Made by a program: the position numbers and the translations under genes
Notes under the pieces: model-generated
What the model saw: the letters and a program-made list of their open reading frames with translations, nothing else
Told to the model about the DNA's origin: nothing
The model's database searches: none
Part shown: positions 15,292 to 43,561 of the stretch, piece after piece
How positions within the stretch are numbered: position 1 is the stretch's first letter
Layout of the letters: each line of letters opens with the position of its first letter
From: Candidatus Nomurabacteria bacterium
GTDB taxonomy: Bacteria > Patescibacteriota > Minisyncoccia > Phycocordibacterales > UBA5272
Assembly: GCA_029288775.1 (NCBI GenBank)
Contig: JARIGQ010000006.1
Coordinates: 64,120 to 128,119 of the forward strand
Length of the DNA: 64,000 nt
Direction: 5' to 3'

Positions 15292-15363
15292 GAAAGCGTA
15301 GTCTAGTTCCTAGACTTGTTGCAATTCGCTAACAAGAGCCACATTTGCAAAGAGAGGGTTCTC

Positions 15364-16503
15364 ATGGAATATCCTGGTAAAGGTGCGTTTAGTAAGTCCG
15401 ACTTGCAAGATTTGATTGCCGCAGAGCGGATTAAGACGCTCCCAGGCTTCGAAGGGAAGCATGTTGGGCCTGCGTCGATTGATATTACCGTCTCAAGCGA
15501 GGAGGTATATCAAGTCTCTCAGCTTTTGCGGCCCAGCGGCAAGCGCCGCGAGAAGGTGAGAGACATGCTTAAAAGCTTGGATGCCAAGCGGGTGAGGATG
15601 GGTTCGGTCCTTGGTACTGGTCACAAGTACGTTGCTAAGGCAACCGTAAATGGTAACTTCCCCGCAGGGTTATACGGGTATAGTAATGCCAAGTCCACAA
15701 GTGGGCGCAACATGTGTCTGTGCCGGACGATCGCCGACGAGGTCGAAGGGTTCGATACCCTTGATCGCCGTTGGGAAAATTGGACGGGAGAAATTTGGTT
15801 GACGATTGAACCGTTTGTGTTCCCTATCGTTCTTACGGATAAGGAGTGTTACGCACAAATCCGCATGTTCGACGGAGATACTCGGTTCCATGAGTCCGAC
15901 CTGAAGAAGGAGTTACAAAAACGAGATTTCCTTTTTAAGCAGGACGGGAGCCGGTACAACTTAGGCGAGCTCGAGTTGACAACAGGTGACGGCACGATTT
16001 TTACCACCCTATACGCGAAGGCGGGTAGGTTGGTGGGATTCAAGGCGAAGCGCACGCTTGAGCCGCTCAATCTGACTGCGCGCGGACTTCACCCAGAAAG
16101 CCATTTCATTCCGGTCTATGCCGAAAAGGACCCCACGGATCCTGATGGGGGAATGGTCACGCTTGAGGCAGGGCATTTCTACTTGCTCTCGACCAACGAG
16201 GTTCTTGATGTTCCAGAGCATCTTTGCGCAGAGCTGGTTGCACTCCATCCGCGCCTTGGATTGTTCTTCTCCCATTTTGCTGGGTTCTTCGATCCGGGAT
16301 TTAAGGGAGTACCTACCCTTGAAGTGACACCCATCATCAGGACTACTTTGCGTCACCGTGAGGCCGTCGGGTGCTTCCGTTATGAGCGGATGCGTTCAAA
16401 GACGGAGTCATACGCGGTTGTCGGTAACTACAGTGGGCAAAAGAGAACCACGCTTCCGAAGCAGTTTCATCTGCCCAGAGATTGGCACGATGCCATGGCC
16501 TGA
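15364..16503 (+). CDS. long-form 2'-deoxycytidine 5'-triphosphate deaminase-like protein (PF06559-like, dUTPase-fold C-terminus)
   Basis: C-terminal HFAGFFDPGFKGVPTLEV matches the HYAGFFDPGF signature of long DCD proteins; 52-55% GC; AGAGAGGG SD 5 nt before the ATG at 15364. Confidence 0.55.
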   Translation: MEYPGKGAFSKSDLQDLIAAERIKTLPGFEGKHVGPASIDITVSSEEVYQVSQLLRPSGKRREKVRDMLKSLDAKRVRMGSVLGTGHKYVAKATVNGNFPAGLYGYSNAKSTSGRNMCLCRTIADEVEGFDTLDRRWENWTGEIWLTIEPFVFPIVLTDKECYAQIRMFDGDTRFHESDLKKELQKRDFLFKQDGSRYNLGELELTTGDGTIFTTLYAKAGRLVGFKAKRTLEPLNLTARGLHPESHFIPVYAEKDPTDPDGGMVTLEAGHFYLLSTNEVLDVPEHLCAELVALHPRLGLFFSHFAGFFDPGFKGVPTLEVTPIIRTTLRHREAVGCFRYERMRSKTESYAVVGNYSGQKRTTLPKQFHLPRDWHDAMA

Positions 16504-16556
16504 AGAGGCAGTAAGAGCTCCGAGAGGGGCTCTTTCTTTTTTGCTACACTGAGCGT

Positions 16557-16976
16557 ATGAAATTGAAAGTGAAAAGATTACATCCACAGGCTAAACTTCC
16601 TACACGTGCACACCATGATGATGGAGGTTTAGATATTTATTGTTGTGAAGAAGTAACGCTTCCTCCACATACTACTGTAAAAATTCCTACAGGCATTGCC
16701 TATGAATTGCCGGTTGGTTATTGTGCATTTGCATGGGATAAGTCTTCTATTGGCGCGAAAGGATTAAAAACACTTGGAGGCGTATTGGATGCGGGATACC
16801 GCGGGGAATTATTCATCCCGATGAGAAATCTCACTAATGAAAGTTACACGTTTGAAGCAGGACATAAAATCGCACAGATGGTAATTCAAAAAGTAGAACT
16901 CTGGGAGGTAGAAGAAGCGCACGAACTTTCTGAAACCGCTCGCGGAGAAGGAGGATTTGGAAGTACAGGGAAGTAA
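16557..16976 (+). CDS. dut: dUTP diphosphatase
   Basis: GVLDAGYRGEL and RGEGGFGSTGK motifs; AT-rich host-like composition. Confidence 0.85.
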   Translation: MKLKVKRLHPQAKLPTRAHHDDGGLDIYCCEEVTLPPHTTVKIPTGIAYELPVGYCAFAWDKSSIGAKGLKTLGGVLDAGYRGELFIPMRNLTNESYTFEAGHKIAQMVIQKVELWEVEEAHELSETARGEGGFGSTGK

Positions 16977-17423
16977 TTATCTTTTACTTAGCTCTCTTAT
17001 TGTGCCTATATATAACTGCTCGTAGGAAGTACCTTGAATGTTCTTATCTTTGGGGCCCAGGTGTACTTCTGTTTTTTCATCAATCCCCATCTTCATAAAT
17101 TGAGGCAAGATTTGTAGCACTTCTTGTCGTACCTTTTCATTAAATGCAAATCCTGCACCTTTGTAGCAATAGAGTCTATTTTCCTGCTTAAGAAAAAATC
17201 CGCGTATGTGTTCTTCTAAAAAACTGTGTAGAGAAGACTCCTCAACCCATCCTTCATCTTTGAACCATTCGATATGTGAACTTTGAATATTAGGAGGAGC
17301 AACTTCAAGCGCTCCATCTTTTATACAGAACATAATTCTCGATGTGTGGAAATCAATATCTTCAGGCCTTGTTTTGAGGAAATTTAAATCTGGAGCATCT
17401 TTCATGTCTAAAGTATAAAGCAC
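16977..17423 (-). CDS. hypothetical protein (host-like composition)
   Basis: 148-aa AT-rich ORF between dut and the GC-rich block; start may be the internal Met (MKDAPD). Confidence 0.4.
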   Translation of the reverse strand: MLYTLDMKDAPDLNFLKTRPEDIDFHTSRIMFCIKDGALEVAPPNIQSSHIEWFKDEGWVEESSLHSFLEEHIRGFFLKQENRLYCYKGAGFAFNEKVRQEVLQILPQFMKMGIDEKTEVHLGPKDKNIQGTSYEQLYIGTIRELSKR

Positions 17424-17471
17424 TTAAAGAAAAAGGCCCGCCAAGGGGCGGGCCTCGACTCGTTGACCTGA

Positions 17472-18533
17472 TCAGTCTTCGAGTGAAAGGATGAATTCGA
17501 CCATCTCCTGGTCACCACGGCAGCCCACGAGGAGTTGCTCCTTGGAGACCAGCTTGGTGAAGTCTCCTTCGTTGGGGATGGTTTTTCGCAGCTGGGTCCA
17601 GACGCGGGAGTAATTCCCCCACGAACCGTCGGGGTCGCCGTCCTCACGTGGGCGCACCGGGTGCTGCAGGGGAGACATGTGCCCATTCCCTTTCAGGTCT
17701 TGGGCCAGTTCGAGATCCTTCGCGAGTGCCCGGACGCCGTTATGGGTCAGATAGCTGGTCCGCGCGCATTTGCCGGCGGAGGCCCATGCGAGAACTCCTT
17801 CTTTCGGTTCCTCGGCACGGTCTTCCGGACGTATGTACGGAAGGTGCCATTGCCCGATTTGGAGTTCCGTGGGCTTGCTGTTCATCATCGCGTGAGCGAT
17901 GACGATGCCGAAGTCGTTGGCTTCAGGTTGCGCGTGTTCGCTGTTGCGGAGGCCGAAGAAGTTTCTCCAGTGCGTAGCAGTCACGATGACCGTGTGGAAC
18001 GAGTAGGGCTCGATCACGCGGTTGGCATGCTGCTTGTGGAGGCCTTGGTCCTGCTCGAACAGGAAGTGGGAGAGTCCGTACTTCCGGACGAGCTCGTCCA
18101 CCTGTTCGCACAACCATGCACCCTTGGCTGCCATGCCAGCTTTCTCGCTTGCTGCCAGGATTTCCTTGTGGCCGCCAGCCAGGTAGAACGCCTGGATGAC
18201 GGCGATGTCCCGGCCGACCAGCCAGTTGGCTACAGCCTTCTTCTGGTCGGAATCCGACAGGGATTCGCCGGCCTGCATCCCGGCCTTGTTGACCCCGAAC
18301 GAGTTGGGGACGTAAGGCCGTTCAAGCACGGCGATCAGCCGCTTGATCGTGGGCATGGCGCGCGAGCTTGCCGAGTTGCGCGAAAAGCGCGTGTGGGTGT
18401 TGAACTCTGCGAGGTAGGGTCGAGGAAACTCGACTTCCACCGAGCAGATTCGCGATCCGCGAAAAATGCTGTCGCAAATCATCTTTGCGGTGGCGCTTAC
18501 CTCGCGGTAAACGGACGGCGGGGTATAATCCAT
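17472..18533 (-). CDS. unknown 353-aa protein of the GC-rich deoxynucleotide island
   Basis: about 60% GC; AAGGAGAT SD 5 nt upstream; own terminator. The opposite-strand 345-aa ORF is an R/V/G-rich shadow. No TS, ThyX, radical-SAM or MTase motifs recognised. Confidence 0.5.
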   Translation of the reverse strand: MDYTPPSVYREVSATAKMICDSIFRGSRICSVEVEFPRPYLAEFNTHTRFSRNSASSRAMPTIKRLIAVLERPYVPNSFGVNKAGMQAGESLSDSDQKKAVANWLVGRDIAVIQAFYLAGGHKEILAASEKAGMAAKGAWLCEQVDELVRKYGLSHFLFEQDQGLHKQHANRVIEPYSFHTVIVTATHWRNFFGLRNSEHAQPEANDFGIVIAHAMMNSKPTELQIGQWHLPYIRPEDRAEEPKEGVLAWASAGKCARTSYLTHNGVRALAKDLELAQDLKGNGHMSPLQHPVRPREDGDPDGSWGNYSRVWTQLRKTIPNEGDFTKLVSKEQLLVGCRGDQEMVEFILSLED

Positions 18534-18738
18534 GAGATCTCCTTTTCCGTGATGGGGTGGAATGAGCTGTAACCAGCTTATCTAAATGTACAAGTTTGGA
18601 ATAGCTTTTACTAGATTGACAGAACGCGTGTTCTGTTCGTTTGTGGAGTTTCTTTCTTTTACATACACTCGGATAAAAGTTCTTTCTCTCAAGAAGGAAC
18701 ATCCTATTAACTATGCGCCTGCGGGCGAGGAGAGTGAC

Positions 18739-19437
18739 ATGGCCAAGGCTATTATTGCGATCGAAGGGTCTGACGGCGCCGGCAAGGAGACGCAGGCGGG
18801 ACTGCTTATGAAGTTCCTCCAGTCGCAGGGATATACCGTGGGGACGGAATCATTTCCCCGTTACAACAAATCGGTCGGCGGTATCTTTTTGTATGATGCC
18901 CTTAAGGGACCGGAGAAGGAGAAGTACGCCTTCTCGAAGCTTGATCCATATGACGCGAGCAAGCCCTACGCCATGGATCGTTCGGAGTCCCGCGGCATCA
19001 TCGAAGATCTCGTCGCGAAGCACGATGTGGTTGTCTTCGATCGTTACGTTGAGTCGAACTTGCTCCACCAAGGGGGCAAGCTCGCTACACCTGAAGAGCG
19101 TGTAGAATACGCGAATTGGTTGTTCCGGGAAGAATACGAAGGCAAGCGCGGTATCCCGCGCCCTGACTTCGTGATCTACCTCAAGATCCCGTTCTGGCTT
19201 TCGCGCGCCCGTGCGGAGCGGCGGTCGGCAAACGGCGGCCCCGCACTTGATGCGGTCGAGTCCGACATGGATTACGTGCGTAAGGGCCACGAAGGCGGCA
19301 TCTTCTATGCCGAGCATTTCGGTTGGGAAGTAGTGGAAGGCTTGGAGGACAAGCGCGAGCTCACCCCGGATGAAGTTCACCAGAAGGTGATCCGCCAGAT
19401 TACCCCTCGTCTTCTCGAAAAAGGGATCGAGATCTGA
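18739..19437 (+). CDS. thymidylate-kinase-like P-loop kinase (P-loop present, TREPGGT motif absent)
   Basis: IIAIEGSDGAGKETQ P-loop, DRYVESNLLHQGG (DRY/lid-like); GAGGAGAG SD before the ATG at 18739. Confidence 0.6.
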   Translation: MAKAIIAIEGSDGAGKETQAGLLMKFLQSQGYTVGTESFPRYNKSVGGIFLYDALKGPEKEKYAFSKLDPYDASKPYAMDRSESRGIIEDLVAKHDVVVFDRYVESNLLHQGGKLATPEERVEYANWLFREEYEGKRGIPRPDFVIYLKIPFWLSRARAERRSANGGPALDAVESDMDYVRKGHEGGIFYAEHFGWEVVEGLEDKRELTPDEVHQKVIRQITPRLLEKGIEI

Positions 19438-19557
19438 AGTAACACTATGGAAACCGGCCCACGGGGCCGGTTTTTTCTTTTCTCGACACATAAGGGAATG
19501 ATGTGATAGGGTGTCGTTAGTACATCCGTACTTTTTCTTTTGCGAAGGAGAAGATTC

Positions 19558-20127
19558 ATGAAGGGCAAGTTCATCGTCTTTGGCGGGGTGAAGTCCCCCT
19601 GGCCCACCATCGAGGTGGTTCAGGAACACGTTCGTTCGAGCGGTGTCGAAACCGTGATCACCAGAGAACCTGGAGGTACGCCCTTTGCGGAGAATATCCG
19701 CAAGCTCCTCCTGGAAGGTGATCATGGTGGCGATTACGGAATCGTGCGAAGCCTCACTCGTGCTGCGCGTATCGAACATGAGCGCAAGGTTGTGGAACCG
19801 GCGCTCGAGCGGGGAGAGCATGTGCTCTGCGATTCCACCGACTATACCAAGTTCCACGAATGGGACACGGTCGTTTCCGAGCAGAGCTTGATCCATTCAG
19901 GTTTCGATCGCGAATGGTTGGTTGGCAAACCGACAATGCTCATCCTGTTCACTCCCTCCGAGATGGATCCGCGGCTCAGGACCATCTTCAACAATGTGGG
20001 GTACACGATGAACACAGGATTCATTTCCTGGGAGACTCTTGTGTACTACGTGGATCCCGGCGACATCCATTCGGTGGAAACGATGTTGGAAGCCTTGAAG
20101 GACCATCTTGCTTTCGAAATCGCCTGA
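19558..20127 (+). CDS. thymidylate-kinase-like protein with degenerate P-loop (TREPGGT present)
   Basis: ITREPGGTPFAENIRKLL dTMP-binding motif but FGGVKSPWPT in place of the G-x-x-G-x-GK-S/T P-loop; AAGGAGAAG SD before the ATG at 19558. Confidence 0.5.
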   Translation: MKGKFIVFGGVKSPWPTIEVVQEHVRSSGVETVITREPGGTPFAENIRKLLLEGDHGGDYGIVRSLTRAARIEHERKVVEPALERGEHVLCDSTDYTKFHEWDTVVSEQSLIHSGFDREWLVGKPTMLILFTPSEMDPRLRTIFNNVGYTMNTGFISWETLVYYVDPGDIHSVETMLEALKDHLAFEIA

Positions 20128-20203
20128 TCACTTCTTGGCCACAGCCCCGCTTGCGCGGGGCTGTTTTCTTTTTAATACTCAGCAAATAAGGTAGTATAGA
20201 TGC

Positions 20204-21904
20204 ATGAATTCCTATTCGGTTATCTATGAGGCGCTTGTAGACCTCTGCAAAAAACAGGGACTTATTGCCTCGTTTTCGCTTGATCAGCCCGACTTGGCGG
20301 AGCATGGTGATTATGCGACCAATATCGCTTTTACGCTTTCTAAATCACTCGGCAAATCTCCAAAAGAAACTGCAGACACCATTGCCATAGAGTTAGCAGC
20401 TTCACTTGAAGACACAATTGAAAAGATAGAGGTTGCTGGCCCTGGATTCATTAATTTCTTTTTGAAGGACGATGTTCGTACGGATGAAGCCGAAGCAGTT
20501 GCGGTAAGCGATATAGTAAATGAGAAAGGAAAAGGGAGCGTGCTTGTGGAATATACCGATCCAAATTGCTTCAAGGTATTTCATATCGGCCACTTGATGG
20601 CAAATACAATTGGTGAAGCAATAGCACGGCTCTATGAAGCAAGTGGGTATGACGTCCTGCGTGTATGTTATCCCTCCGATATTGGGTTAAACGTTGCCAA
20701 GGGTGTGTGGGGTGTTATGCAATTAGCCTCCGAAAAGCCCGATGAAAGTGCTTCGCTTAAAGAAAAAGTTGCTTTCTTAGGGAAAGCTTACGCGTATGCT
20801 CATCAAAAGTATGAAGAAAGCGAAGAAAATAAGCAGGCGATTGTAGAGGTGAACAAAGCTATCTATGCCGGAAACGACGCACAAGTAATGGGGGTGTATG
20901 CGGAAGGTCGGGCGCTTTCTTTGGAATATTTTGAAACCCTGTACGCAATGCTTGGAACAAAGTTTGATGCATACGTATATGAATCTGAAGTTGCAGATCC
21001 AGGAAAGGTGATTGTGAAAGCGTACATGGGAAGCATTTTTGAAGAATCTGAAGGAGCAATTGTATATAAAGGGGAGCAAGACGGATTACATACCAGAGTG
21101 TTTATTAATTCTGTGGGACTCCCTACATATGAGACCAAAGATATTGGCAACTACGAAAGGAAACTTTCTCTTCTTCCAAATGCGGATAGATATGTGGTAG
21201 TAACCGCCCAGGAGCAGGCCGAATATTTTAAGGTGATCAACAAAGTGGAAGAAAAACTCCACCCTGAGCTTACCGGAAAGCTGGTGCATATTAGTCATGG
21301 CATGATGCGTCTTGCATCCGGTAAAATGTCATCCCGAACAGGGAACGTAATTGGTGGGGAAGATTTGATTGATAAGATCAAGGAAGTGCTTTCTGCGCGA
21401 TTGGAAGATATGAAGGTAGAGGAAATAGATAAACCAAAACTTCTCAACGATATTGCAGTTGGTGCAGTGAAGTTTTCCATACTTAAGCAAGCACCGGGAA
21501 AAGATACGGTATTTGATTTTGAAAAATCTATCTCGTTTGAGGGGGACTCCGGTCCGTATTTGCAGTATACGCACGCTCGTATATGTGCGCTCTTGGATCG
21601 GGCGGAGGAGGTGGGGATTGATATTGAAAGCTATGCAATAGAACATCCAGAACGAGAACTTGAACAGGTAATCATTGGTTATAATCAAGCACTTGAAAAG
21701 GCATGTACGGAACTTGCCCCTCAATCAATTTTGCAACATCTTCTTAAGCTTACGCGCGCATTTAATAATATGTACGGCCGCGAGCAGATCATTCGCGATG
21801 ATAAGGAATTAAGTGCGTATTATATGATGCTTACGCAAGCGACAAAAAACATTTTAGGTCACGGACTTTCGACGCTTGGTATTGTGGCTCCGGAGAGGAT
21901 GTGA
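20204..21904 (+). CDS. argS: arginine--tRNA ligase
   Basis: 566 aa, HIGH-region FHIGHLMANTIGEAI and C-terminal DALR anticodon-binding region. Confidence 0.9.
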   Translation: MNSYSVIYEALVDLCKKQGLIASFSLDQPDLAEHGDYATNIAFTLSKSLGKSPKETADTIAIELAASLEDTIEKIEVAGPGFINFFLKDDVRTDEAEAVAVSDIVNEKGKGSVLVEYTDPNCFKVFHIGHLMANTIGEAIARLYEASGYDVLRVCYPSDIGLNVAKGVWGVMQLASEKPDESASLKEKVAFLGKAYAYAHQKYEESEENKQAIVEVNKAIYAGNDAQVMGVYAEGRALSLEYFETLYAMLGTKFDAYVYESEVADPGKVIVKAYMGSIFEESEGAIVYKGEQDGLHTRVFINSVGLPTYETKDIGNYERKLSLLPNADRYVVVTAQEQAEYFKVINKVEEKLHPELTGKLVHISHGMMRLASGKMSSRTGNVIGGEDLIDKIKEVLSARLEDMKVEEIDKPKLLNDIAVGAVKFSILKQAPGKDTVFDFEKSISFEGDSGPYLQYTHARICALLDRAEEVGIDIESYAIEHPERELEQVIIGYNQALEKACTELAPQSILQHLLKLTRAFNNMYGREQIIRDDKELSAYYMMLTQATKNILGHGLSTLGIVAPERM

Positions 21905-21944: not shown

Positions 21945-22140
21945 ATGGCGATGACGGGAGTAATCACCCCTGAGCTTCGGGAAGAAAGTCGAAAGGCAAG
22001 TAGAACCCAGTGAATGAGGTCCAAGAAGGGAAACCGACGAGGACAAATCAAGGTGGTACCACGGGAATCTTTTGAAACTCGTCCTTGGAAAGCAATATCA
22101 AACATTGCTTCTCAAGGACGAGTTTTTATTTTTAATTACA
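21945..22140 (+). promoter_or_regulatory. T-box riboswitch leader with terminator, upstream of ileS
   Basis: AAUCAAGGUGGUACCACGGG (22046-22066) matches the T-box consensus AGGGUGGNACCGCG; followed by the terminator CTCGTCCTTGG...CCAAGGACGAG + T-run (22078-22140); promoter TTGCAC-16-TAGTAT at 21910-21937. Confidence 0.55.
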
Positions 22141-22145
22141 AACAT

Positions 22146-25100
22146 ATGAACGATACACCCAAATCAATAAACGAAAAGGAACTAGAAACGCTTGCGTTCT
22201 GGAAAGAACATGCGATTTTTGAAAAGTCGGTGGAAACGCCAGCCGGGGATACACCCAAAGGATCCTTTTCATTTTATGATGGTCCACCATTTGCAACAGG
22301 TACTCCGCATATGGGGCATATTTTGGCTGGAACAATTAAGGATGCAATTCCGCGGTACCAAACGATGAAAGGTAATTCCGTCCGCCGTGTATGGGGATGG
22401 GATTGCCATGGGCTTCCAATTGAAAATTTGATTGAAAAGAAGCTCGGTCTTCAGTCAAAGAAAGATATTGAAAGCTTCGGTATAGATAAGTTTAATCGTG
22501 ACGCGTTTGAGTCAGTGCTTCAATATGAAGAGGAATGGAAGAAGGCAATTCCTCGATTGGGTCGTTTTGTAGATATGGAGCATCCCTACAAGACGATGGA
22601 TTGGAGTTATACCGAAAGCGTATGGTGGTCATGGAAAACTTTGTATGAAAAGGGGCTTGCTTACGAAGGGAACAAAATGATGCATATTTGTCCTCGTTGC
22701 GAGACACCGCTTGCACAATCTGAAGTAGGACTTGAATATCATGATGTTACTGACCTTTCGGTGACGGCAAAATTTGAGCTAGTGGATGAACCGGGAACAT
22801 ATGTACTTGCGTGGACAACAACGCCGTGGACTCTTCCGGGGAATACGGCACTTGCTCTAAAAGAGGATGCTCACTATGTAAAGGTTTCCATTGAAGGAAT
22901 GGGAGGGCTGTATGTGCTCGCTCAAGAAAGAATAGAAGAGGTGCTTAAAGAAATGAAGTACGAAGTGCGGGATACTTTTGTTGGCAGTTCACTTATCGGT
23001 AAATCATATAAGCCTGTATTCCCTTATTTTATAGACAAGAATATTGAAAACAAGGAACAGATCTGGAAGATTTGGCATGCAGAATTCATTACTCTTGATA
23101 CTGGAACTGGTATCGCCCATGAAGCTCCTGCTTTTGGTGCCGAAGATATGGATCTTGCAAAAGCACACACCATTCCCGTGATCAAGCATGTGAAGATGGA
23201 CGGAACGTTTACTGAGGATGTGACAGATTTTGCTGGCATGAAAGTGAAGGTTAAGGACGATACGCAATCTGCTGATATTGAGATCATTAAATATTTGGCA
23301 CACAACGGTTTGCTTTTCGAAAAGCATAAAATCGTCCACTCCTATCCACTCTGCTGGCGATGCAAGACTCCGCTTCTTAATTACGCGACATCGTCTTGGT
23401 TTGTGGATGTGCCAAAGATGAAGGAAAAGCTTTTAAATGAAAATCAAAAAATTGGTTGGACTCCAGACCATATTCGCGAGGGGCGATTTGGGAGATGGCT
23501 TGAAGGCGCACGGGAATGGGCCGTATCACGCTCGCGTTATTGGGGTGCGCCGCTTCCTGTGTGGAAGTCCGCTTCAGGTGACGTGAAAGTCATTGGCAGC
23601 TTAAAGGAGCTTGCGACCCTTTCTACAAAAAAGTCGAAGAATACTTATTTTGCAATTCGACACGGTGAAGCAAAGAGTAATATCGATAATATGCTCGATA
23701 GTTATGGTGATAAGAATAATCATCTGACGGATTTGGGTAAGGAACGCGCACGACATGCGGGACATTTTGCAAAAGAACAGGGAATAGATCTTATTATTCA
23801 TTCACCACTTCTACGTACGAGGGAAACGGCAGGCATCATTCATGAAGCGTGCGGCGCCTCCACAGTGGAAGATGTTCGACTGCAGGAATTCCAAGGAGGA
23901 ATCTTTTCTGGAAAACCTATTCACGAGCTCCGTTCATTTCAGCATTCCTCGACTTTCACCTTTGACTCCAAAGTGGAAAATGGAGAATCATATCGCGAAG
24001 TTATGCATCGTGTCATGTCACTTCTTCATGAGTGCGAAACAAAGTACAAAGGAAAGAAGATTCTTTTTGTGACTCATGGTTCTCCACTCTGGATGCTTCA
24101 AGCGGGAGCAGAATTAAAGACCGATGAGGAGCTTTATGGGGAAATTGCTTCCCATGAAGATACGTCTCCTGCCCACGCGCACGTCATTCCGATTAAGCCG
24201 CTTCTTGTGCCTCGAGATGAAACTGGTGCAATTAACCTTCATCGCCCGTATATTGATGAAGTTGAGTTAGAGATAGAAGGGAAGCTGTATAGGCGTATTG
24301 GAGATGTCTTTGATTGCTGGTATGAATCAGGCTCCATGCCGTTTGCGCAACTCCATTACCCCTTTGAGAATAAAGAGGTGTTTGATAAAAATTTCCCGGC
24401 AGACTTTATTGCTGAAGGGTTGGATCAGACCCGTGGGTGGTTCTATTCGCTGATTAATCTAGGGGTGGGCCTGTTTGATAAGGCTCCTTATAAGCATGTC
24501 ATTGTAAATGGTTTGGTGATGGCTGAAACTGGGCAAAAGCTCTCTAAAAGTGAAAAAAATTATACCGATCCCATGGAGCTTGTGGCGCGCTATGGAGCGG
24601 ATGCGGTGCGTTATGCTTTGCTTTCTTCACCAGTTGTAAAAGGGGAGAATGTTCAGTTTGGTGATAAAACAGTAGAAGATGTATATAAGAAGGTTATTCA
24701 GCGTTTGGAAAATGTCGTGTCTCTTTATGAAATGAATAAAGATACCTCCTACGAAGCAAACCCTGCTTCTCGTAATGTGCTTGATAGATGGATCGTCTCT
24801 CGTGTACATGAGCTCGTAGCAAGGGCAACTAAAGGATATGATACGTATACGCTTGATGAAGCAACCTACCCGCTTGATCAGTTCGTAGATGATTTGTCTG
24901 TATGGTATGTACGTCGCAGTCGAGATCGTCTTAAGGGGGATACCGGGGAAGAGGACAAAAGACTCTCTTATGAAACACTCACGTATGTATTGATCACGGT
25001 TGCTAAAGTGATTGCTCCCGTTATGCCATTTTTAGCGGAACGTTTGTATCAAACGGTGTGTACAGCTCGAGAGTCGGTGCACCTTGAAAGCTGGCCAGAG

Positions 25101-25574
25101 AGCGGAGTAATAGAGGAAGATGTTCTTACAGAAATGAGAAAAGTGCGGGAGGTTGTAACTCAAGCGCTTGCCAAGCGTACCGAAAGTAAGATTGCTGTCC
25201 GTCAACCGCTCGCGAAACTTACTGTTAAAGAAACAATCCATAAGGAGTATGAAGCAATTCTTCTTGATGAACTTAATGTTAAAGAGCTTGCAATCGATTC
25301 TTCGCTTGCCGAGCCATGTGTACTCGACACTGCACTTACTGAGACGCTCAAGCAAGAAGGCGACGTACGTAATCTTATGCGTGCAATTCAGGACGCTCGC
25401 AAGGAAAAGGGTCTTACCCCTAAGGATACAGTGACGCTGAGTGTTTCGTATACTGTACCAGATGCATTTAGGGACATGCTGATGGCTACTTGTCGTGTAG
25501 TTGCAATTGAAGAAGGTGAAGGTCCGTACGGAGCGGAAACATCTCAAGGAAGAATAACCTTCGATCTTCGTTAA
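22146..25574 (+). CDS. ileS: isoleucine--tRNA ligase, eukaryote-like type 2, with an inserted histidine-phosphatase (PGAM-like) domain
   Basis: FYDGPPFATGTPHMGHILAGTIKD is nearly identical to the human IARS motif; WTTTPWTLPGNTALAL editing domain; KLSKS; about 190-aa insert (RHGEAKSN...LLRTRETA...VTHGSPLW) between the catalytic core and ...GDVFDCWYESGS. Confidence 0.9.
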   Translation: MNDTPKSINEKELETLAFWKEHAIFEKSVETPAGDTPKGSFSFYDGPPFATGTPHMGHILAGTIKDAIPRYQTMKGNSVRRVWGWDCHGLPIENLIEKKLGLQSKKDIESFGIDKFNRDAFESVLQYEEEWKKAIPRLGRFVDMEHPYKTMDWSYTESVWWSWKTLYEKGLAYEGNKMMHICPRCETPLAQSEVGLEYHDVTDLSVTAKFELVDEPGTYVLAWTTTPWTLPGNTALALKEDAHYVKVSIEGMGGLYVLAQERIEEVLKEMKYEVRDTFVGSSLIGKSYKPVFPYFIDKNIENKEQIWKIWHAEFITLDTGTGIAHEAPAFGAEDMDLAKAHTIPVIKHVKMDGTFTEDVTDFAGMKVKVKDDTQSADIEIIKYLAHNGLLFEKHKIVHSYPLCWRCKTPLLNYATSSWFVDVPKMKEKLLNENQKIGWTPDHIREGRFGRWLEGAREWAVSRSRYWGAPLPVWKSASGDVKVIGSLKELATLSTKKSKNTYFAIRHGEAKSNIDNMLDSYGDKNNHLTDLGKERARHAGHFAKEQGIDLIIHSPLLRTRETAGIIHEACGASTVEDVRLQEFQGGIFSGKPIHELRSFQHSSTFTFDSKVENGESYREVMHRVMSLLHECETKYKGKKILFVTHGSPLWMLQAGAELKTDEELYGEIASHEDTSPAHAHVIPIKPLLVPRDETGAINLHRPYIDEVELEIEGKLYRRIGDVFDCWYESGSMPFAQLHYPFENKEVFDKNFPADFIAEGLDQTRGWFYSLINLGVGLFDKAPYKHVIVNGLVMAETGQKLSKSEKNYTDPMELVARYGADAVRYALLSSPVVKGENVQFGDKTVEDVYKKVIQRLENVVSLYEMNKDTSYEANPASRNVLDRWIVSRVHELVARATKGYDTYTLDEATYPLDQFVDDLSVWYVRRSRDRLKGDTGEEDKRLSYETLTYVLITVAKVIAPVMPFLAERLYQTVCTARESVHLESWPESGVIEEDVLTEMRKVREVVTQALAKRTESKIAVRQPLAKLTVKETIHKEYEAILLDELNVKELAIDSSLAEPCVLDTALTETLKQEGDVRNLMRAIQDARKEKGLTPKDTVTLSVSYTVPDAFRDMLMATCRVVAIEEGEGPYGAETSQGRITFDLR

Positions 25575-43461: not shown

Positions 43462-43534
43462 GCATCCATAGCTCAGTTGGTAGAGCCGTCGTCTTATACA
43501 CGACTGGTCCCTGGTTCGAGTCCAGGTGGATGCA
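43462..43534 (+). tRNA. tRNA-Ile with anticodon UAU (AUA-decoding)
   Basis: cloverleaf folds cleanly: acceptor GCATCCA/TGGATGC, D GCTC/GAGC, anticodon stem GTCGT/ACGAC with loop cTTATAc, T-loop TTCGAGT; CCA not encoded. Confidence 0.75.
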
Positions 43535-43561
43535 CAAAAGTACGTTTGCTATACTGTGTGC

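Follow-up and report, generated by a model that had tools for sequence, protein, structure and literature searches.

In a 64,000-nucleotide stretch of contig JARIGQ010000006.1 from a Candidatus Nomurabacteria bacterium (hereafter the window), two adjacent genes resemble thymidylate kinase (Tmk), and an earlier note, made from the letters of the DNA, had described them as a pair of degenerate paralogues, each holding the half of the active site that the other lacks. We favour, as on balance the probable explanation, that the first gene (A) encodes a working deoxythymidine monophosphate (dTMP) kinase and the second (B) a separate, non-catalytic accessory protein that binds a ligand. The parts of this explanation differ in strength: A is very probably active as a stand-alone kinase, B is in all likelihood non-catalytic as a kinase yet functional, and the role of B as a stand-alone ligand-binding protein is a plausible proposal that falls somewhat short of probable. 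Both open reading frames (ORFs) were confirmed, in position and in sequence, as the note had quoted them; they lie in the same reading frame, with three stop codons in the spacer between them. Gene A begins MAKAIIAIEGSDGAGKETQ, whilst gene B begins MKGKFIVFGGVKSPWPT and contains the internal segment VITREPGGTPFAENIRKLLL, which includes ITREPGGT and IRKLL. Against the Pfam Thymidylate_kin profile (PF02223; 185 positions, cut-off 27 bits) A scored 58.1 bits over profile positions 1-140 and B 39.2 bits over residues 19-93 only, i.e. profile positions 14-87 of 185, and a six-frame profile scan of the window detected no Tmk-like ORF beyond these two. The window is bacterial chromosome, carrying a 16S rRNA gene, a tmRNA gene and two tRNA-Ile genes, and its host is a member of the Candidate Phyla Radiation (CPR, or Patescibacteria) of the Paceibacteria/Nomurabacteria type. 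The features of the gene pair are as follows.

18739..19437, + strand: gene A, predicted complete dTMP kinase of the FPRY (Mycobacterium tuberculosis/eukaryote-like) class, 232 amino acids (aa); Pfam, alignment with 1g3u, AlphaFold2 (AF2) model and Foldseek, motifs in 66 sequences
18766-18792, + strand: P-loop of gene A, GSDGAGKET
18853-18864, + strand: FPRY of gene A
19039-19047, + strand: DRY of gene A
19449..19475, + strand: terminator-like hairpin and T-run directly 3' of A; consensus scan, RNA fold
19545..19550, + strand: AAGGAG ribosome-binding site, 7 nt 5' of the B start codon; read from the sequence
19558..20127, + strand: gene B, predicted Tmk-derived pseudokinase, 189 aa; Pfam, hhalign, family alignments, conservation, ratio of nonsynonymous to synonymous substitution rates (dN/dS), AF2
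19582-19608, + strand: degenerate former P-loop of gene B, GGVKSPWPT
19660-19683, + strand: conserved TREPGGTP of gene B
19828-19836, + strand: CDS in place of CDR in gene B, the LID being shortened
20141..20164, + strand: terminator-like hairpin 3' of B, a 10-bp stem with 8 GC pairs, then a T-run; consensus scan

Judged by its sequence, gene A encodes a complete dTMP kinase, belonging to the mycobacterial or eukaryote-like class, that would need no partner. Residues 5-192 aligned to M. tuberculosis Tmk (PDB 1g3u) with an E value of 3e-19 and approximately 29% identity, the segment ESFPRYNKSVGG of A aligning on LAFPRYGQSVAA of the M. tuberculosis enzyme and SFPRY (aa 38-42) on its FPRY. Because the A string falls on the M. 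tuberculosis FPRY, this motif represents the class-specific counterpart of TREPGG and not an absent motif, so that the observation that A lacks TREPGGT is correct for the literal string but overlooks the class equivalent at the same position. Similarly, the P-loop that had been called perfect is present with its lysine but reads GK-E-T, with glutamate at the position of the usual Mg-binding Ser/Thr, a substitution that almost all A-type proteins of the CPR share; the M. tuberculosis enzyme has GK-R-T. The contacts of M. tuberculosis Tmk with dTMP comprise Phe70 stacking on the base, Arg74 and Asn100 to the base, Asp9 to the sugar, and Arg95 and Tyr39 to the phosphate (PMC3619541), and their counterparts in A are Y77, R81, N107, D12, R102 and Y42, respectively. 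Across 66 A-type sequences D12, Y42, Y77, R102 and N107 were invariant and R81 was conserved in at least 90%; also invariant were the P-loop lysine K16, the FPRY residues F39, P40, R41 and Y42, R158 and R162 of the LID (SRARAERR), and D171 and E174, whilst the residues of the DR(Y/H) motif (D101, R102, Y103) were invariant or conserved in at least 90%. The catalytic motifs of A-type proteins with and without a B neighbour were identical.

The AF2 model of A (predicted local distance difference test score, pLDDT, 96; predicted template modelling score, pTM, 0.90) had M. tuberculosis TMPK as its best Foldseek match, with a target-normalised TM-score of 0.79-0.83 and 1g3u at the top, and the next-best superpositions were on the Plasmodium, human and vaccinia enzymes. 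With the M. tuberculosis (1g3u; NF005923) and eukaryotic FPER-type enzymes A shares the full-length alignment, FPRY, DRY, equivalents of Asn100, Asp9 and Asp163/Glu166, an arginine-rich LID and a non-Ser/Thr residue after the P-loop lysine. It differs from the M. tuberculosis Tmk in having Glu for Arg14, His for Tyr103 and Tyr for Phe70, and in belonging to a CPR-specific subfamily. Its NCBIfam scores (114.5 bits for NF005923, equivalog cut-off 193; 51.5 bits for TIGR00041, cut-off 83.25) lie below the equivalog cut-offs although the Pfam cut-off is exceeded, which marks A as a divergent subfamily member. More than 160 A-type clusters were found at E < 1e-10, the relatives being labelled Paceibacterota or Minisyncoccia, and A is predicted from these matches to belong to an extensive family of mycobacterial-type Tmks in the CPR. 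As recorded in the database, the A protein (P0265) has 283 aa and an initiating ATG at 18586, 51 codons 5' of 18739; all A orthologues of 231-233 aa use the start equivalent to 18739, which is preceded by GAGGAG, and the true start is most likely 18739.

Gene B appears to be a genuine pseudokinase descended from a canonical bacterial TREPGG-type Tmk. As the earlier note had observed, ITREPGGT and the IRKLL region can both be read in its sequence, and FGGVKSPWPT stands where the P-loop would be expected; this absence extends to the family, in which none of the six known members has a GK[ST] Walker A motif. In place of the GGVKSPWPT of the window the five relatives have AGTRPLGLR, GGVRPENTR, AGIAGDGRR, AGVVDRAGNDA and GGVIKDSRS, and the region is unrecognisable in all six members, with indels and varying length. 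Amongst the 243 nearest canonical Tmk matches (at least 150 aa) the P-loop lysine is kept in all but one. CDR has become CDS in all six B members, with loss of the DRx arginine, which is essential for catalysis in dTMP kinases (PMC12995831), and the B LID is 13-21 residues shorter than in aligned canonical Tmks, with no invariant arginine in aa 132-159. B is therefore predicted to be unable to bind ATP in the manner of a Tmk.

The nucleoside monophosphate (NMP) side of the site has fared differently. T35, R36, P38, G39, G40, T41 and P42 of the TREPGG loop and the α3 arginine R71 are invariant in the B family, and the first 94 residues of B are 40-50% identical to canonical bacterial Tmks; in a profile-profile comparison (hhalign) of B with 50 canonical Tmks only columns 1-94 aligned. 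The B family alignment contains 46 invariant columns, including new ones specific to B, and conservation (mean pairwise identity; invariant positions) is distributed over its segments as follows.

Former P-loop: 18%; 0 invariant
TREPGGTP and α2: 67%; 10 of 22 invariant
α3: 62%; 9 of 23 invariant
β3 with CDS: 76%; 5 of 11 invariant
α5 (E108, S110, H113, F116, R118, E119): 62%; 7 of 14 invariant

The diverged C-terminal half holds 17 invariant residues, many of them polar, including S93, Y96, E108, S110, H113, R118, E119, K124, N146, D169 and H183. In what we take to be the Staphylococcus aureus numbering (it agrees with the residue numbers in PMC10610096), B keeps R36, E37, P38, R48 and R70 and has lost K15, F66, R92, S97, Y100 and Q101. 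Compared with canonical bacterial Tmks (Escherichia coli 4tmk, Pseudomonas aeruginosa 4e5u, Vibrio cholerae 3lv8 and S. aureus 2ccj), B thus keeps TREPGGTP, α2, the α3 arginine, β3 and the fold, but is without the P-loop lysine and Ser/Thr, the DRx arginine, the conserved LID arginines, the thymine-stacking aromatic and the S/Y/Q base-recognition residues, and its C-terminal half is unrecognisable by sequence. The AF2 model of B (pLDDT 83, pTM 0.83), built from an input alignment of mostly canonical Tmks, retains the strand and helix order of a Tmk, with a low-confidence stretch at residues 98-120 (pLDDT 61-64), and the top 50 Foldseek matches of the model were all Tmks (TM-score 0.61-0.74 for the top 25; 0.65-0.74 for bacterial Tmks), so the Tmk fold is retained as modelled. 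With its ATP side destroyed and its NMP side conserved, B has the anatomy of one alternative that the earlier note had offered, a kinase accompanied by a substrate-binding pseudokinase.

B belongs to a very small family, comprising six lineages among approximately 15 billion proteins, all from uncultivated CPR bacteria. A search of 5.8 billion clustered proteins returned three full-length relatives of 42-46% identity and thereafter only matches of the N-terminal half to ordinary Tmks, one more member came from searching 1.84 billion representatives exhaustively with a profile, with a sharp fall in score from 209 to 91 bits, and the sixth was located by gene context (locus L089; related loci are numbered with L throughout). 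A metagenome scan with the B-family alignment (motifs TREPGGTP and ERGxxVxCD) gave no new B member among the matches listed, a genome scan gave the L001 contig as the only full-length match to B among the matches listed, and a scan of viral contigs gave N-terminal matches only, the best of which, L175, was an ordinary active Tmk encoded on a large viral contig. A search with the C-terminal half of B by itself retrieved nothing, the known members of the family included, and so carries no weight as a negative. Fusions of a Tmk to a pseudo-Tmk, of the Rosetta-stone kind, were considered and rejected, the longer matches (P0199, P0174, P0212 and P0169) being ordinary Tmks with C-terminal tails. In the library of papers searched we found no description of a Tmk pseudokinase or pseudoenzyme of this type.

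Despite its rarity the family does not have the appearance of a remnant. All six B members have intact ORFs of around 190 aa, with synonymous sites saturated for most pairs, and dN/dS of B ranged from 0.15 to 0.23; for the sole unsaturated pair, L001 and L004 (dS 0.79), it was 0.187 for B and 0.049 for A. The AGGAG ribosome-binding site upstream of B was invariant in the four aligned loci. Intact reading frames, low dN/dS and the conserved ribosome-binding site together argue that B is not a decaying pseudogene, and B appears to be under purifying selection. A functionless, decaying relic of a displaced canonical Tmk would fit with the loss of the catalytic motifs, with the faster evolution of B than of A and arginyl-tRNA synthetase (ArgRS), and with the absence of B from close relatives; it is nevertheless a very unlikely explanation in the face of reading frames that outlasted synonymous saturation, invariant columns that include new B-specific ones, and signals for translation and termination of its own. 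Since its own terminator-like hairpin follows it in the window, B looks monocistronic. A hairpin and U-run also lie between the upstream Tmk and B in every B locus examined (window, L001, L003 and L004), although their sequences differ, and the A-B spacer of the window folds at -39.6 kcal/mol (z = -3.1). Past the terminator of the upstream Tmk a second small hairpin can form on GTAC...GTAC (window 19509-19527, + strand); each of these four loci has it, some 25-40 nt 5' of the start codon of B, and it is possibly a 5' leader element of B.

A and B are evidently not recent paralogues, B being derived, to judge from these comparisons, from canonical Tmks. BLASTP of A against B gave no significant similarity (E > 0.7) and neither of the A-family and B-family profiles detected the other, whereas B matched unrelated proteobacterial-type Tmks at E values around 1e-20, far closer than its match to A. 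An origin of B by tandem duplication of A was rejected on this lack of pairwise and profile similarity, and the description of the two as degenerate paralogues fails on this count as well as on the completeness of A. Nor do the genes always occur together. In L091, L172, L173 and L174 an A-type orthologue, 53-60% identical to A of the window, occupies the same slot between rplK and argS without B, a terminator and then the promoter region of argS lying downstream of it, whilst in L003 the gene upstream of B is not of A type but a complete canonical Tmk (DGMDGVGKGS, FTREPGGT, SDRS). The Tmk fold places both substrate sites within one subunit, and a site split across subunits would thus be without structural basis. 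The complementary-halves model of the earlier note, an obligate heterodimer of degenerate paralogues, drew on two adjacent Tmk-like genes, one without a P-loop and the other without a literal TREPGGT; it is now highly improbable, and we regard it as effectively ruled out because A has the FPRY equivalent and every catalytic residue, the same slot holds an A-type kinase but no B in other loci, B stands beside a canonical partner in L003, and terminators intervene. A looser regulatory complex of A and B may exist, though it is weakened by the same facts.

Prozymes are inactive paralogues that regulate active homologues, and B is like them in being a catalytically dead homologue that selection has retained next to an active enzyme with the same fold, but differs in that it is no duplicate of A, is optional in close relatives and is transcriptionally separate. 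It is unlikely, in our estimation, that B is a non-catalytic regulatory subunit of this kind, binding and tuning the neighbouring active Tmk, even though B is found directly downstream of an active Tmk in every known case and its best-conserved part includes α2-α3, the helices through which canonical Tmks dimerise. For the taxa with both genes the trees of A and B also have the same topology, ((L001,L004),L089),W, where W is the window, whilst the ArgRS tree instead joins W and L089; from this agreement of A with B and difference from ArgRS, the two genes have been passed on together, by inheritance or by exchange, and their adjacency, inherited from one ancestral arrangement, does not constitute independent evidence for an interaction. 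Against a regulatory subunit stand the two Tmk classes from which its partner would be drawn (A-type, and canonical in L003), the lack of detectable similarity between A and B, the terminator that parts the genes in all loci, and L172, where an A orthologue 75-77% identical to the B-associated A proteins occurs without B; moreover, mycobacterial-type Tmks dimerise otherwise than canonical Tmks.

The nearest precedent for an adjacent active and inactive pair of this fold is rPPK3/cPPK3 of Sulfolobus acidocaldarius, a heteromer of adjacent dTMP kinase-fold paralogues in which one member is inactive by replacement of the DRx arginine, and in which rPPK3, a Tmk-fold protein without that arginine, activates cPPK3 (PMC12995831). 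B resembles this pair no further than in the missing DRx arginine of the inactive protein. In the PPK3 subunits it is the ATP/ADP-binding residues that are retained and the dTMP-binding residues that are lost (PMC12995831), the reverse of B, and the PPK3 proteins form their own clade in a polyphosphate gene neighbourhood. Two adjacent Tmk-fold genes, one without the DRx arginine, could in principle be the catalytic and regulatory subunits of a PPK3-type polyphosphate kinase, but we attach practically no credence to this: all dTMP contacts are present in A, B has retained the NMP loop and lost the ATP site, the neighbourhood (Dcd, Dut, ThyX, argS) is one of dTMP synthesis and not of polyphosphate metabolism, and the S. 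tokodaii PPK3 structure (PDB 5h70) was not among the matches of A at E <= 0.001 or of B or the B profile at E <= 1.

Our preferred explanation for B, a ligand-binding accessory protein, can be formulated as follows. B would have arisen from a canonical bacterial TREPGG-type Tmk by erasure of the ATP side and rebuilding of the C-terminal half with invariant polar residues of its own, whilst the NMP-phosphate loop TREPGGTP, α2, α3 with its base-contacting arginine, and β3 would have been kept under purifying selection. The old NMP site may then bind dTMP, deoxyuridine monophosphate (dUMP) or a similar phosphorylated ligand without turnover, and B, probably as a homodimer like its ancestors, might serve as an optional accessory factor of the deoxythymidine triphosphate (dTTP) branch, for example as a sensor, buffer or regulator, carried along with A on a GC-rich cassette swapped between related genomes. 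Its role would be independent of the partner, since B has persisted through the substitution of non-orthologous versions for the Tmk, ThyX and Dcd beside it.

Several points weigh against this explanation. The ligand-binding role is suggested by the pattern of conservation, and with only six members in the family the statistics are thin. In B, Thr or Ile takes the place of the thymine-stacking aromatic (S. aureus Phe66, E. coli Phe74), and the equivalents of Ser97, Tyr100 and Gln101 are not retained, so that, the base pocket being changed, the ligand may not be dTMP. Conservation across TREPGGTP, α2 and α3 could be structural, or reflect a dimer interface, and not ligand binding. The constant position of B beside a Tmk and the tracking of the A tree by the B tree would fit a physical partnership too, and the B-specific polar residues S93, Y96, E108, S110, H113, R118, E119, N146 and H183 would equally suit a new catalytic site or a protein interface. 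In the former case B would be an enzyme rebuilt to act on an NMP, as a nucleotidase, hydrolase or group transferase, through the retained phosphate loop and the new polar residues. The invariant residues of the diverged C-terminal half favour such an enzyme, as do Ser93, exactly at the position of the catalytic arginine that contacts the substrate phosphate, and the presence in the same slot of some related loci of a Nuc_deoxyrib_tr-like gene for handling deoxynucleoside monophosphates (dNMPs). We nevertheless hold it to be improbable, as Pfam, NCBIfam, PHROGs and PADLOC gave no match of B to any known family of hydrolases or transferases, the structure search returned Tmks only, and the region 98-120 is modelled at low confidence.

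The genes surrounding A and B belong to dTMP synthesis and are listed here with the right-hand border of the slot.

About 15361-16503, + strand: long-form dCTP deaminase (Dcd); Pfam DCD_N, DCD, DCD_C
16557-16976, + strand: dUTPase (dut); Pfam dUTPase, 98 bits
17472..18533, - strand: phage-type ThyX-like thymidylate synthase, 353 aa, divergent, part of a GC-rich variable block with A and B; phrog_85, Pfam Thy1
20204..21904, + strand: argS, conserved right-hand border of the variable slot; Pfam tRNA-synt_1d, DALR_1, Arg_tRNA_synt_N

The block at 17.4-20.1 kb has a GC content of 55-60%, against 44% for the window, and a GC content at third codon positions (GC3) of 0.68-0.76, compared with 0.40 in argS and 0.28 in dut. 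Relatives show a like contrast, Dcd, ThyX, A and B being GC-rich and Dut, rplK and argS native; across loci GC3 is 0.44-0.76 for Dcd and the ThyX-Tmk-(B) genes and 0.21-0.40 for native genes. The mosaic was compared over window 15361-20127, L001 6066-10626 and L091 3057-6750. L001, which has B, and L091, which does not, encode ArgRS proteins that are 98% identical, their flanks have 89-93% DNA identity and their dut genes 90.6% nucleotide identity, yet their Dcd genes are without DNA similarity, and the ThyX-Tmk-B block of L001 is replaced in L091 by another type of ThyX in inverse orientation and an A allele of 51% identity, with nucleotide identity restored from 40 nt 5' of argS onwards. Between rplK and argS there is thus a hypervariable, GC-rich cassette exchanged between related genomes.

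The components of this cassette vary in kind as well as in sequence. The ThyX-like protein of the window (GC 60%, GC3 76%) matched phrog_85 at E 2.5e-41 and Pfam Thy1 with 24.4 bits, just under the cut-off of 24.8, and the same arrangement is also found in L089 and L091. L001, L003, L172 and L173 have an unrelated ThyX of 449-456 aa, with two Thy1 stretches confirmed in L001 and L003, and BLASTP of the window protein against the 452-aa ThyX of L001 gave no significant similarity. The Dcd/Dut synteny is found upstream in L001, L003, L089, L091 and L172. In the same slot of L174 (1103-3767) dCTP deaminase and ThyX give way to a dCMP deaminase, a dUTPase, a dihydrofolate reductase and an inverted ThyA, that is, a whole alternative route to dTMP at the same position; Patescibacteria are reported to have gained thyA by horizontal transfer (PMC12455944). 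Between ThyX and Tmk, L003 (3951-4388) and L173 (2167-2583) have the Nuc_deoxyrib_tr-like gene (PF05014), which directly adjoins the start of Tmk in L003 and in L173 shares 4 nt with Tmk, suggesting translational coupling, and whose product may be an enzyme of the dNMP N-hydrolase type. The neighbours of A and B form the standard route to dTMP through dCTP deaminase, dUTPase and ThyX, and a specificity for a modified dNMP, which the earlier note had raised, was rejected, there being no modification enzyme nearby.

The PADLOC defence models gave no match for B, Dcd, the ThyX-like protein or a 148-aa ORF. The latter (16977-17423, - strand, 37% GC) follows directly after the dut stop codon, is missing from L089, which otherwise has the same arrangement, and had no match in Pfam, NCBIfam or PHROGs either. 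Long antisense ORFs (18850-19896, - strand; 17535-18572, + strand) are taken to be by-products of GC-rich coding on the opposite strand. Elsewhere in the window a tRNA-Ile with anticodon UAU (43462-43535, + strand) is encoded besides the tRNA-Ile(GAU) adjoining the 16S rRNA gene, and the isoleucyl-tRNA synthetase (22014-25574, + strand, 1186 aa) has a His_Phos_1 histidine-phosphatase domain inserted at aa 547-700 (105 bits), an insertion also annotated in L001, L089, L091, L173 and L174.

Given this setting, B may alternatively be an accessory protein of a mobile dTMP-synthesis cassette, driven by conflict or by regulation: a prozyme-like subunit that switches the Tmk next to it, or a nucleotide sensor, a decoy or a new dNMP-processing enzyme that is exchanged amongst CPR bacteria along with alleles of thymidylate synthase and Tmk. 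We consider this possible, though not the expected outcome; if true, B would be the first Tmk-fold pseudoenzyme in which the NMP site is kept and the ATP site discarded, mirroring rPPK3, and a protein of this sort would be linked to a hypervariable island in which essential genes of nucleotide metabolism lie. Few pseudoenzymes that descend from nucleotide kinases have been documented, the sole characterised Tmk-fold example, rPPK3, keeping its ATP site, and selection appears to maintain B in CPR bacteria, which are ultra-small and have genomes with little dispensable content. Should B bind dTMP or dUMP, it would constitute a compact natural nucleotide-binding module and possibly a regulator of dTTP supply in salvage-dependent organisms. 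The swapping of Dcd, ThyX or ThyA, and Tmk as GC-rich cassettes between genomes with nearly identical ArgRS bears on the exchange of core metabolism amongst CPR bacteria and their phages, and this exchange of essential dTMP-synthesis genes may be as interesting as B itself.

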